NCBI RefSeq assembly: GCF_013122565.1
Contig: NZ_CP053258.1
Origin: Escherichia coli
Lineage (GTDB): Bacteria; Pseudomonadota; Gammaproteobacteria; Enterobacterales; Enterobacteriaceae
DNA: 64,000 nt
Strand: one strand, 5' to 3'
This document shows, in pieces, positions 27,142 to 36,983 of this stretch. Under the pieces are notes generated by a model. It saw nothing but the letters and a program-made list of their open reading frames with translations. It had not been told where the DNA came from and searched no databases. The stretch's first letter is position 1. The number at the start of each line of letters is the position of its first letter. Both the position numbers and the translations under genes were made by a program.

Positions 27142-27176
27142 GCCGGATGCGGCGTGAACGCCTTATCCGGCCTACA
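27142..27176. repeat. REP (repetitive extragenic palindrome) between ybdD and cstA
   Basis: gccggatgcggcgtgaacgccttatccggcctaca, canonical REP-like sequence; the same 35-mer recurs at 49068-49102. Confidence 0.6.
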
Positions 27177-27184
27177 AATGCTAT

Positions 27185-27295
27185 CAACGTGCTCGGTCAG
27201 TCCCCTCGCCCCACCGGGGAGAGGGTTAGGGTGAGGGGAAACCCTCGGCGCCATGCCAACATTCGCCAACATTCCCCCTCACTCTGACTTTAGTG
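27185..27295. repeat. GC-rich imperfect palindromic element (GGGAGAGGG / CCCTCACCC cores) downstream of cstA
   Basis: cccctcgccccaccggggagagggttagggtgaggggaaaccctc...; shares about 20-nt cores with the element in the fepB leader (coordinates approximate to about 15 bp). Confidence 0.4.
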
Positions 27296-33228: not shown

Positions 33229-34404
33229 TTAATGCAATCCAAAAACGTTCAACATGGTAGAAAGTTTGACGCCTGTTTCGCGCCACTCACCCAACGGTGA
33301 CGACGCAGGCACAATCCCCGCTCCGGCAAACAGACGCACCTGATTTTCCCGCAGCTTCGCGCAGCGGATGGTCACCACCCATTCGCCGTTACCTTCGCTG
33401 TCACACCAACCCACGATGCCGCCAAACAGTTCGCGGTCGAACGGCTCCAGTTCAGCAATAACCTGGGTCGCGGCCTGATGCGGGAAACCGCTCAGCGCGG
33501 GGGTCGGATGCAGCAGACAGGCCAGAGTCAGTGCGTTTTCTTGCGAATTCGCTTTACCTTCAAAGGGAGTTGCGAGATGCCACAGCGTCGGCGTGGTAAT
33601 CAGCTGTGGACAGGAGGGAACGTGTAACTCACTACTGCGTTCGCGCAGTACCTCTTTCATCGCCTGAGTCACCAGTTCATGTTCATGGCGATCTTTTTCT
33701 GACGCCAGCAGACGATTACCCGCTTCGCGATCGAGCACTTCATCCGGCTGACGACGCGCGGAACCGGCTAACGGAATGGAGCTAAAACGCTCGCCGTCTT
33801 TACGTAGCAGCAGTTCCGGGCTGGCCCCCAGCAGGACGCCACCATCTGCCAACGGCACATGGAAGTTGTAACTAACCGGGTTTTGCGCAATCAACCGTTC
33901 CAGCAATACGCCACTATCAATGGCGGCGTCAGTGGTGATATCAATCAACCGTGACAACACCACTTTGTCGACCTGCGGCGTGGCGGTAAGTGCGGCAGCG
34001 CGAGCAACCATCTGTTCAAACGTGGTTTGTTCCGGAATTGCCTGGCGTTCCACCACGTTCAGCGACTGGCTGCGGGTGAAACGGCGTGCGGAAGCTTGTT
34101 TTTCCTGACGGGAGAACGACTGCCAGGATTCAGGAATATACAGCGACGAAGGCTGACATGGATCGAAGGGAATCGCCCCGACCATCACCGGATTTTTGAT
34201 GCCCTGCGCTTTGGCGTCGGCAAACAGCGCGGCGAGTTTTTGCTGGAAGGGACTGTCGGGCGAATCCCCATTCACAGCCGGTTCATCGAAGCGGGCGAAA
34301 CATCCTGACGTCGTAAAACTGCGGTACGGCGACATAAAGAAAAAGCGATTGGGCGCAAGTGTTGCCATGGTCTGCTGTACTTCCTCAGCCAGTGACGTAT
34401 CCAT
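33229..34404 (-). CDS. entC: isochorismate synthase (391 aa)
   Basis: Internal ATG ([19 protein letters not shown]) of track ORF 33229..34416; the track start codon is GTG. Confidence 0.93.
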
Positions 34405-34419
34405 ATCATCCTCCACAAA

Positions 34420-34460
34420 ATGATAAAGGCTTTAATAATGATTATCATTTATATTTTCGG
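34420..34460. promoter_or_regulatory. Fur box in the divergent entC / fepB control region
   Basis: aataatgattatcattt, a near-perfect match to the GATAATGATAATCATTATC Fur consensus, about 30 bp upstream of the entC ATG (coordinates approximate). Confidence 0.6.
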
Positions 34461-34589
34461 TCGCTAACCTAAAAGCAAACGCGCACTATGTCAACTCTTG
34501 AGGTAACGCAATCTGCAACTCGGGGTTGCATCTGGTTGTGGTTACAATGAAAATGAGAAGCATTATTGATGGATTCGCATAAGCGCAAT

Positions 34590-34730
34590 GTGATGGCCTG
34601 CGCCGTTCTGCCCCCTCTCCCTTCCAGGGAGAGGGCTGGGGTGAGGGTTAATGCTCGCACCAGTGCTGGCTGTTCCCCTCACCCTCTCCCCAAAGGGGCG
34701 AGGGTACGGATTGTGCGCTTTGTCGAATTT
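34590..34730. repeat. GC-rich imperfect palindromic element in the fepB leader / entC-fepB intergenic region
   Basis: ccccctctccc-ttcc-agggagagggctggggtgaggg ... cccctcaccctctcccc-aaa-ggggcgaggg: nested inverted repeats (coordinates approximate to about 15 bp). Confidence 0.4.
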
Positions 34731-34772
34731 GTCATTACGCCCTTAACCTTATTAATAACAGGAAGCTGATTT

Positions 34773-35729
34773 GTGAGACTCGCCCCGCTCTACCGCAATG
34801 CCCTTCTATTAACAGGACTTTTGCTTTCAGGAATAGCCGTAGTTCAGGCCGCCGACTGGCCGCGTCAGATTACTGACAGCCGGGGCACTCATACCCTGGA
34901 AAGCCAGCCGCAGCGTATTGTTTCCACCAGCGTCACCCTGACTGGCTCACTGCTGGCGATTGATGCTCCTGTGATCGCCAGCGGCGCGACCACGCCGAAT
35001 AACCGCGTCGCGGATGACCAGGGTTTTTTACGCCAGTGGAGCAAGGTGGCGAAAGAACGCAAACTGCAACGGCTCTATATCGGCGAACCGAGCGCCGAAG
35101 CCGTTGCCGCGCAAATGCCGGATCTGATTTTAATTAGCGCAACCGGTGGTGATTCGGCGCTGGCGCTGTATGATCAGCTTTCCACCATCGCCCCGACATT
35201 AATCATCAATTACGACGACAAAAGCTGGCAGTCGCTGTTAACGCAGCTTGGCGAAATTACCGGGCATGAGAAACAAGCGGCAGAGCGGATTGCACAGTTT
35301 GATAAGCAACTGGCGGCGGCGAAAGAGCAAATCAAATTACCGCCGCAGCCGGTCACTGCCATTGTCTATACCGCCGCTGCACACAGTGCCAATCTCTGGA
35401 CGCCGGAATCAGCACAAGGGCAGATGCTGGAACAACTCGGCTTTACGTTGGCGAAATTGCCCGCAGGGTTAAACGCCAGCCAAAGCCAGGGCAAACGCCA
35501 TGACATCATTCAGCTTGGTGGAGAAAATCTGGCTGCAGGGTTAAATGGCGAGTCACTATTCCTGTTCGCCGGTGATCAGAAAGATGCCGATGCTATTTAT
35601 GCCAATCCACTGCTCGCGCACCTGCCCGCAGTACAAAACAAGCAGGTTTATGCGCTGGGAACCGAGACGTTCCGTCTGGATTACTACAGCGCCATGCAAG
35701 TGCTGGAACGACTTAAGGCGCTGTTTTAA
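34773..35729 (+). CDS. fepB: ferric enterobactin periplasmic binding protein (318 aa)
   Basis: Track ORF 318 aa with signal peptide; start codon appears to be GTG; long structured leader upstream. Confidence 0.93.
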
Positions 35730-35732
35730 GCA

Positions 35733-36983
35733 TTAACCGTCAGACGCTGTCACCTGCGGCGGCGTCTGGCGAAAACGTCGCAACTCCACCAGCACCAGCA
35801 ATAACAACACGCCGATAATCAACAAACCAAAACCGCTCGCGCTTGCGGAAGCAACCGGTGTCATCATCGCTCCCAAACCGCCCAGCAGCGCCGCGCCTAT
35901 GGCATCGCCCGTCACGTTTTGTGCCGTCCACAAACCATTAATCCGCCCTAACATCGCTTCCGGGGTTTGCGTTTGCAGCATTGTATATTGCAGCAACGAG
36001 CTGACCGCACTCAACCAGCCGAACAGCGCCAGACAAACCACGCCTAAAATCCACATCGGCATCAGGCCAAACAGACCAATGGCGAGGAACGATCCCAGCG
36101 TGGAGAGCAGCATCAATAACCCTGGTCGCGCGCTATGCGCCAACTTCCCGCTGGTTAACGCGCCAATAGCCGCGCCGAGCGGGATCGCCGCATAGAGAAA
36201 ACCAATCTGTGCCGCCGACATCTGCCAGTTGTCAGCCAGCGCCGGATACAGTACCCGCACCGCACTCGCCATCGTCAATAAACCACCCAGCAGCGCAATC
36301 CCTCCCACCAGCGGGCTGGCGAGCAGAAAACGAAATCCTGCCAGTAATGATTTCAACGGATGCTCACGCGGCTGCGGTGGTGGTGGCAGTGCCGGAAGGC
36401 TTAACAACGGTAGCAAGGTAATAAACGTGCCCGCCGCCGCCAGTCCGTAGTTCCAGGCCACACCGCCAGTCGCCAGCAATAAACCGCCAATCATGGGCGA
36501 AATCACCGACCCCAGACGCACGGTCAACATGGTGATCGCCCCGGCCTGCATTAAGTTTTCACGCCCTACCAGTGCAGGTGTCGCCGCCAGTAGCGCCGTA
36601 ACGCCAAGTGATGCGAAAAAACCATCCCATAAACCAAGTAAATAGATTGCCAGCAATGACGGTTCAGGCAGCAGTGCATTAAGGCACAGTCCAATGAAGC
36701 CAATGCCACAGGTGCCGCGCGCCAGCAAAATCACTTTTTTGCGTTCATAGCGATCCGCCAGCACACCGCCGACCATCAGGCCAACAAACATCGCGCCGCC
36801 GGTCAGCGTCACCGAAAGCCCCACCTGCCAGGTGGAATGTGTCATCATCTGGATCTGCACCGGCACCGCGACGCCGAGCAAACCCAGAGAAACAATAGAG
36901 ATGAAACGAGCGAGGAATACTGCGCGAAACGCCGGGTGCGTTTTCAACAGGCTGAGGTTAAGCAGCCAGGATTGTTTATTCAT
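35733..36983 (-). CDS. entS: enterobactin exporter, MFS family (416 aa)
   Basis: Track ORF 416 aa, 12-TM MFS pattern; convergent with fepB with a 3-bp gap. Confidence 0.92.

Follow-up and report, generated by a model that had tools for sequence, protein, structure and literature searches.

The GC-rich palindromic sequence upstream of fepB in the 64-kb window (i.e., the whole stretch of 64,000 nt of Escherichia coli DNA analyzed here) is, by alignment, the fepB-entC copy of the dispersed BoxC family of intergenic repeats. It is carried on a segment of 180 bp which, when compared with the spacers of related genomes, is a derived insertion that entered the fepB Fur box 2 nt from its 3' end. With a probability of roughly 85%, we regard the segment as a passively carried repeat, either neutral for fepB or with a mild modulatory effect on it, that has no evolved iron-regulatory role. 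Both the family and its copy at this locus have been described in the literature. The polarity of the insertion and the ~50:50 dimorphism within E. coli are a useful clarification rather than a discovery.

BoxC units in the fepB leader

In the window, entC and fepB are divergent and separated by a spacer of 368 bp (34405-34772). The initial annotation had described nested, GC-rich inverted repeats upstream of fepB and had considered that they might be a copy of a dispersed repeat family. The repeats are present at 34613-34704 as an inverted CCCTCNCCC/GGGNGAGGG pair, and the family proved to be BoxC/PIT/TMECO. The parts of the element are as follows:

34566-34745 (+), inserted segment carrying the BoxC pair, 180 bp (186 bp in K-12), delimited by alignment with O18 and O157:H7 E. 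coli
34566-34587 (+), left arm of the outer, imperfect inverted repeat, TTGATGGATTCGCATAAGCGCA, from a repeat search; closing helix of the predicted fold
34613-34647 (+), type B BoxC/TMECO unit, CCCTCTCCC-TTCCA-GGGAGAGGG-CTG-GGGTGAGGG, with four G3+ tracts, on the fepB sense strand
34613-34621, CCCTCTCCC
34627-34635, GGGAGAGGG
34638-34647, GGGGTGAGGG
34649-34674 (+), inter-unit spacer with a small internal hairpin (GCACCAGTGC), conserved in the paired K-12 copies ygfF-gcvP and alx-sstT
34675-34704 (-), type A BoxC/TMECO unit, degenerate, CCCTCGCCCC-TTT-GGGGAGAGGG-TGAGGGG on the minus strand, from alignment with K-12 TMECO 7 and other type A copies
34675-34684, CCCCTCACCC
34682-34691, CCCTCTCCCC
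34695-34704, GGGGCGAGGG
34714-34734 (+), right arm of the outer inverted repeat, from the repeat search; the conserved 5' flank of the type A unit

The type B (plus) and type A (minus) units are 27 nt apart, giving the inverted A and B pairing that is typical of the family. The repeat search resolved a central inverted repeat flanked by two local hairpins, together with an outer inverted repeat (34564-34587/34714-34737) that is 71% complementary over 24 nt and stops 8 nt before the right boundary of the insert. The element exceeds the 34590-34730 originally assigned to it, with family homology spanning ~34586-34737 and the insert 34566-34745. The pattern CCCTCNCCC-N2-7-GGGNGAGGG occurred three times in the 64-kb window vs. 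0.00 expected (100 shuffles), and a chance palindrome was rejected by shuffling on both this count and the folding energies given below.

BoxC repeats reportedly received the name PIT elements from Hoyne and colleagues in 2000. The BoxC motif, later PIT elements, corresponds to the "triplex motif" CCCTCNCCC-N3-6-GGGNGAGGG-N3-GGGNGAGGG, of which 23 copies are tabulated for K-12 MG1655 (Holder, 2015, PMC4666352, Table 1). These include TMECO 7 (624,579-624,614, type A) and TMECO 8 (624,676-624,641, type B), and fepB-entC is among the five inverted pairs of type A and type B units in K-12 (PMC4666352). In the MG1655 region that we fetched (624,279-624,976), positions 624,579-624,676 fall between fepB (end 624,510) and entC (start 624,885). 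The same site holds the putative G-quadruplex motifs HPGQ 17/18 (Kaplan, 2016, PMC5100583), and BoxC is a recognized E. coli family in a systematic survey of stem-loops (PMC2267715).

The type B arm (34613-34647) fits the three-block C-G-G pattern exactly and is one base off K-12 TMECO 8. In the type A arm only the first two blocks fit, owing to a 6-nt deletion relative to K-12 TMECO 7 that fuses two G blocks and leaves three G tracts; the K-12 allele fits the pattern fully. The K-12 copies at fabI, zntA, yjdP, frlR, tauD, ygfF-gcvP, and alx-sstT can be aligned to the two arms base for base, and the hrpB-mrcB copy of K-12 is also homologous in the alignment. Across thirteen aligned K-12 loci the homology includes the flanks, i.e., ...GAGCNCAATCGGTC before type A and GTTTTCT before type B, and the copies at fabI, zntA, yjdP, ygfF, and alx share the 5' flank of type A (34714-34734). 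A genome-wide copy count, which had been put forward as a check on the repeat-family idea, returned 22,233 places for the 117-nt core in 4657 of 5426 complete E. coli genomes (median 3, maximum 13 places per genome). None of the best 30 of these 22,233 places overlaps an annotated feature, and both BoxC loci of the window are intergenic. An Rfam scan of 33500-36000 gave no match at E <= 1, and a known structured RNA was rejected on that result.

Long and short forms of the entC-fepB spacer

The features of the spacer outside the repeat, together with the two copies of a trinucleotide that bounds the insertion, are listed here:

34404 (-), ATG of entC
34435-34452 (-), entC Fur box ("Fur box 2"), ATAAATGATAATCATTAT on the entC strand, by sequence match to PMC5020551
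34526-34554 (+), putative fepB promoter, with -35 TTGCAT (34526-34531), a 17-nt spacer and -10 GAAAAT (34549-34554), proposed from cross-genus invariance
34550-34567 (+), fepB Fur box ("Fur box 1"), AAAATGAGAAGCATTATT, an exact match to the sequence in PMC5020551
34563-34565, left copy of TTA (single at the empty site)
34743-34745, right copy of TTA
34760-34775 (+), fepB Shine-Dalgarno AGGAAG (34760-34765) and GTG start, outside the insert
34773 (+), GTG start codon of fepB

The entC-fepB spacer measures 187-189 bp in 46 of 80 species-representative loci of the Enterobacteriaceae, including E. albertii, one unnamed Escherichia species, Citrobacter, Enterobacter, Klebsiella, Raoultella, Leclercia, and Kosakonia, and it is 188 bp in both B2-like O18 and O157:H7 E. 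coli. Since the short spacer recurs across genera, the short form is ancestral and 34566-34745 is an insertion. The junction in O18 and O157:H7 reads ...GAGAAGCATTA/ACTTCATTAATAACAGGAAG..., while the window reads ...GAGAAGCATTA-(TTGATGG...180 bp...CGCCCTTA)-ACCTTATTAATAACAGGAAG...; the empty site is thus GCATTA/ACTTCATTAATAAC and the filled site GCATTA-(TTGATGG...CGCCCTTA)-ACCTTATTAATAAC. When 34566-34745 is removed from the window the junction becomes GCATTAACTTCATTAATAAC, and the short junction sequence is found in the seven other species whose spacers were compared, including E. albertii, Citrobacter, Enterobacter, Klebsiella, and Salmonella.

Megablast with the whole spacer separated two allele classes in E. 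coli. A query coverage of at least 80%, i.e., the long form, was seen in 2754 E. coli genomes; in most of the others the match ends at query base 161, which is position 34565 of the window. Queries with the left flank (46 nt) and the right flank (43 nt) of the insert each matched exactly 2754 of 5426 genomes, at essentially one place apiece, so that three independent queries give the long form in 2754 of the 5426 complete E. coli genomes. Of the 5418 E. coli genomes that have the locus, 2664 lack the insert in the fepB leader. The insert is likewise absent from 79 of the 80 species loci, the exception being E. whittamii, which keeps a collapsed remnant of 100 bp whose core is a single hairpin (GCGCCCCTCGAAGGTTGGGGCGAGGGG). 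The same insertion point, outer flanks and flanking substitutions in E. whittamii indicate a single old event. E. whittamii (1213-1500 of the fetched locus) and the long E. coli alleles also have in common the flank variant ACCTTAT, which suggests, from the sequences compared, either one old insertion or introgression. The K-12-like strains with the long leader are presumably phylogroup A. BoxC places are generally few in the genomes of short-spacer strains, with a single one in several of the matches listed.

Other spacers in the family are enlarged as well. In Salmonella enterica subsp. arizonae the entC-fepB spacer is 308 bp (~1192-1500 of the fetched locus) and holds a palindromic insert of ~120 bp, located on the entC side of the Fur boxes, which we take to resemble an ERIC/IRU element. 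The spacer is 232-233 bp in Kluyvera, 311 bp in K. grimontii, 344 bp in Intestinirhabdus, and 247 bp in Pseudocitrobacter. These enlarged spacers contain no BoxC motif.

Promoter, Fur boxes and the extent of the leader

The positions of the fepB and entC Fur boxes agree with the Fur footprint coordinates of PMC2189734, and Fur box 1 overlaps the -10/-35 region of fepB (PMC5020551). The last 2 nt of the fepB Fur box come from the insertion; the entC Fur box is separate from the repeat and is given for context only. TTGCAT and TGAAAATGAGAAGCATTA are invariant among the Escherichia, Citrobacter, Enterobacter, Klebsiella, and Salmonella spacers compared, unlike the hexamer TACAAT (34543-34548), which varies among genera. 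From this comparison we infer that the fepB promoter is TTGCAT-N17-GAAAAT, with a start site near 34560-34562. A simple scan for promoter consensus did not flag the TTGCAT-N17-GAAAAT site. In O157:H7 the hexamer at 34543-34548 reads TATAAT, which may bear on which -10 is used.

Since the insertion point would be at about +5 of this putative transcript, the 5' UTR of fepB would have grown from ~30 nt to ~210 nt (~217 nt in K-12). The placement of the element within the fepB 5' UTR, as initially annotated, accordingly fits its position downstream of the Fur box and promoter, with the extent of the UTR set by the putative start site. Elkins and Earhart in 1989 and Brickman and colleagues in 1990 are said to have noted a stem-loop in the leader and a leader of ~217 nt in K-12. 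The consensus scan of the insert gave no terminator-like site and promoter-like sites only in the entC-proximal part of the spacer, and a terminator or internal promoter within the insert was rejected because the scan gave neither.

Predicted folding of the leader

RNA folding of the fepB leader, an analysis recommended at the outset, predicted a stable structure that is better than that of shuffled sequence. With energies that count Watson-Crick pairing only, 34590-34730 folded at -68.9 kcal/mol (z = -3.5) as RNA of the fepB strand and at -64.1 kcal/mol (z = -3.9) as RNA of the opposite strand. On the same terms the 180-nt insert reached -85.1 kcal/mol as RNA (z = -4.9, with 0 of 200 shuffles equally good) and -40.9 kcal/mol as single-strand DNA (z = -4.6). 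The long stem-loop that had been proposed for the leader stands insofar as the predicted fold is very stable (z to -4.9); its shape does not, since the window allele is predicted to form three adjacent hairpins inside an outer helix, and it is in the K-12 allele that the minimum-energy fold is a single long nested stem.

When the full leader was folded with 45 nt of coding sequence, the insert was predicted to pair only with itself, its outer inverted repeat forming the closing helix. From the Shine-Dalgarno sequence to the start codon, the predicted mean unpaired probability was 0.43 for the long leader of the window, 0.45 for that of K-12, and 0.43 for the short form, and the prediction thus showed the ribosome-binding site to be neither sequestered nor exposed by the insert. 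Since accessibility of the Shine-Dalgarno-to-start region is equal with and without the insert, the structure is not predicted to gate the initiation of translation.

Allelic variation and instability of the insert

Compared with K-12, the window has four substitutions and the 6-nt deletion inside the insert and no difference in the other 188 bp of the spacer. The first hairpin is perfect in the window allele (AGGGAGAGGG) vs. AGGGTGAGGG in K-12. Approximately 200 genomes match the 117-nt core of the window at no less than 95% identity, and the O26, O111, and O103 entries among those listed are free of gaps; by this token the ~200 genomes presumably share the 6-nt deletion. The exact sequence of the window was found in a single record, strain ET201. 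By our own count, the divergence between E. whittamii and the window is ~6% over the promoter half of the spacer and ~14-20% over the flanks of the insert.

Four other paired loci were compared between K-12 and strains with shorter spacers, and these showed internal collapses or replaced segments. At alx-sstT of E. coli R11, a strain with one BoxC-like match, an internal deletion of 78 bp leaves one hairpin, and such collapse of a pair to one hairpin has been called the "palindrome effect" (PMC4666352). Judging from its three remaining G tracts, the deletion-fused type A arm of the window can probably form only a hairpin. Taken together, the substitutions, deletions and collapses fit a repeat that is weakly constrained and prone to deletion.

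Other BoxC copies in the window and near fepB

The window contains a second BoxC copy and, close to it, a repeat of another kind:

27142-27175, canonical REP/PU palindrome, 27 nt before the BoxC unit at 27203; the spacer that holds both, flanked by cstA-like and ybdD-like ORFs, is 181 bp long
27203-27238 (+), second BoxC/TMECO copy, a single type A unit, CCCTCGCCCC-ACC-GGGGAGAGGG-TTA-GGGTGAGGGG, between the cstA-like and ybdD-like ORFs

The core of the 27203 copy is the CCCTCGCCC variant, which falls outside the pattern CCCTCWCCC. The K-12 counterpart of this copy is HPGQ 19, at cstA-ybdD (PMC5100583); it is not in Table 1 of Holder (PMC4666352), though the window copy fits Holder's pattern. 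On the other side of fepB, a type B BoxC unit lies immediately 3' of the fepB stop codon, in the convergent fepB-entS spacer, in several species of Enterobacter, Lelliottia, Leclercia, Silvania, and Pluralibacter (ten loci, at ~2397-2560 of our fetched loci L027, L034, L055, L058, L059, L063, L065, L072, L073, and L085). In sister species this position is either empty or taken by a REP-like palindrome, and different repeat families seem to occupy the fepB-entS spacer interchangeably. In Enterobacter genomes BoxC copies number up to 143.

What the insertion may do

The self-folding of the insert and the unchanged accessibility of the Shine-Dalgarno sequence and start codon make a passive repeat most likely. 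In such a course of events, a BoxC-bearing palindromic segment of 180 bp would have been inserted at about +5 of the fepB transcript and would be co-transcribed with fepB. Within the transcript the segment would then form a hairpin domain by itself, with the outer inverted repeat as closing helix, and the Shine-Dalgarno sequence and start codon would be no less accessible than in the short leader that preceded it. At the DNA level, the family to which the segment belongs forms hairpin, triplex and G-quadruplex structures in vitro and marks intergenic sites of unusual variability. What has been published on the family is in the same vein. According to the summary of earlier work in PMC4666352, PIT elements block DNA polymerase in vitro but not in vivo, where they were also credited with no promoter or terminator activity and with no influence on RNA polymerase, reverse transcriptase or conjugation. 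TMECO units show no association with gene class or with distance to ORFs (PMC4666352). Direct tests of the BoxC family have established no function, and the discovery value of the fepB copy is small. A search of the literature on the function of the fepB leader and on its targeting by RNase III or CsrA, with the primary fepB promoter papers outside its coverage, returned nothing relevant.

The initial annotation had suggested instead that the structure is a translational or stability element for fepB. A fepB-specific, cis-regulatory leader, whose stem-loop would control translation or mRNA stability under iron limitation, would account for the location directly after the Fur box (in a putative 5' UTR) and for the very stable predicted fold, and by analogy an outer helix ~5-7 nt from the putative 5' end could protect the transcript from decay that depends on that end. 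We consider this reading quite unlikely, however, since about half of the E. coli genomes and 79 of the 80 species have a fepB leader without the element, and a dedicated fepB element is hard to reconcile with a sequence that adjoins unrelated genes, often at their 3' ends, or with the unchanged accessibility predicted for the ribosome-binding site. The insert also gains substitutions and deletions faster than the adjacent promoter and has no match in Rfam. A broader proposal, that the insertion rewired fepB post-transcriptionally in the carrier lineages, appears improbable to us. In this proposal, a self-folding domain of 180 nt that would start ~5 nt from the mRNA 5' end and carry a G-rich tract on the sense strand would change the half-life of the fepB mRNA, its processing (e.g., through entry of RNase III or RNase E) or its translation, compared with the ancestral leader of ~30 nt. 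If it were true, FepB dosage during iron starvation would differ between K-12-like and O26/O111/O103-like strains on the one hand and B2 and O157:H7 strains on the other. The long allele has been retained by many lineages and by E. whittamii, as would be consistent with a benefit of some kind. Least probable of all, and very nearly dismissed here, is a small leader peptide from the ORF at 34566-34769 (67 codons, ATG at 34569). This ORF covers the insert, and the 6-nt indel does not disrupt its frame in K-12, but it has no Shine-Dalgarno sequence, its ATG is within ~10 nt of the putative 5' end, its product is a low-complexity translation of the palindromic repeat, its frame is shifted in the E. 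whittamii allele (80 nt shorter), and it is unannotated in the MG1655 RefSeq record. The ORF, which ends 3 nt before the fepB GTG, was therefore judged to be a translation artifact of the repeat.

Two further explanations concern DNA rather than RNA. The segment might act on the chromosome as a non-B DNA element (an intrastrand triplex, a G-quadruplex/hairpin switch or a cruciform), either as a hotspot of rearrangement or as a modulator of supercoiling and of the divergent transcription of entC and fepB, a role that is compatible with a passively carried repeat and that we hold as a tentative possibility, less probable than not. TMECO oligonucleotides form a triplex in vitro, and the surroundings of TMECO loci were more variable than control sites in 56 E. 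coli genomes (PMC4666352), while circular dichroism revealed an ion-dependent change between G-quadruplex and hairpin in vitro, for which the authors proposed no role (PMC5100583). In our own data, all five differences from K-12 fall inside the insert, the 6-nt deletion between GGG repeats is of the slippage type, collapses occurred in E. whittamii and at alx-sstT, and the single-strand DNA fold is well below shuffled energies. However, in vivo DMS footprinting of TMECO showed no triplex protection, and earlier in vivo assays were negative according to the same source (PMC4666352). The variability is equally explained by an unconstrained selfish repeat, and since the type A arm is short one G block, the potential for a triplex or G-quadruplex would be confined to the type B arm. 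Alternatively, the 180 bp might be a MITE-like element with inverted ends and a 3-bp TTA target duplication, mobilized in trans by some transposase. The clean filled and empty sites, the TTA that borders the insert on either side and the 22-24 nt of outer inverted repeat suggest such an insertion, if weakly, and the family is multi-copy and strictly intergenic. Yet the inverted repeat has the imperfect complementarity and the 8-nt shortfall at the right boundary described above, the outer left 20 nt are single-copy in E. coli at the sensitivity used, and the 3-nt match at the junction may be chance or deletion microhomology. Neither a clean empty site nor a duplication was seen at alx-sstT, ygfF-gcvP, hrpB-mrcB, or lldD-trmL. 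A search for a related autonomous element sharing the ends found none, the outer flanks being single-copy in E. coli at the sensitivity used. Phages gave no match to the repeat core and only two weak partial matches, in Campylobacter phages. The records labeled as plasmids that cover most of the element are mostly of 0.28-4.9 Mb, apparently mislabeled chromosomes, with one record of 113 kb; no true plasmid with the element was found, and the other plasmid matches are weak or partial. On balance, a MITE-like origin is doubtful.

The insertion nevertheless matters, if modestly, for work on this locus. The fepB-entC region is in wide use as a model of a Fur-regulated bidirectional promoter and as an expression cassette (PMC5020551). 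Half of that region in K-12 is a lineage-specific insertion that most enterobacteria do not have, which matters when results are generalized and when constructs are trimmed. The dimorphism of long and short forms over ~5400 genomes is, in addition, a natural experiment on whether BoxC has any effect upon a neighboring gene.

Comparison with known systems

A stable helix near the 5' end of an mRNA brings to mind the stem-loop stabilizers of the ompA type. The stem-loop in the 5' UTR of ompA has been shown experimentally to prolong mRNA half-life, whereas for fepB the start site and any effect are putative, and what forms the helix is a repeat that was inserted recently, not a leader conserved among species. 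The ERIC/IRU and other MITE-like repeats of enterobacteria are likewise imperfect palindromes of 100-200 bp that are intergenic, transcribed and polymorphic among strains; they are of a different sequence family, and the terminal repeats and target duplication of BoxC are weakly evidenced. REP/BIME (PU) sequences are also short, GC-rich, palindromic intergenic repeats that are co-transcribed with their neighbors, but the fepB element has no sequence similarity to them and did not fit the REP consensus when compared with the REP at 27142-27175. A mobilizing enzyme family, RAYT, and protein partners are known for REPs, and to our knowledge neither a mobilizing enzyme nor protein partners are known for BoxC. 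The closest system is the BoxC/PIT/TMECO/HPG1-HPG2 family itself (PMC4666352, PMC5100583), with which the fepB element has in common the sequence, the architecture of a type B unit with an inverted type A unit, and the locus, its K-12 orthologue being TMECO 7 and 8, or HPGQ 17 and 18. Relative to that K-12 copy, the window allele is distinguished by its perfect first hairpin and by the deletion of one G block in the type A unit, where the three-block pattern is lost.
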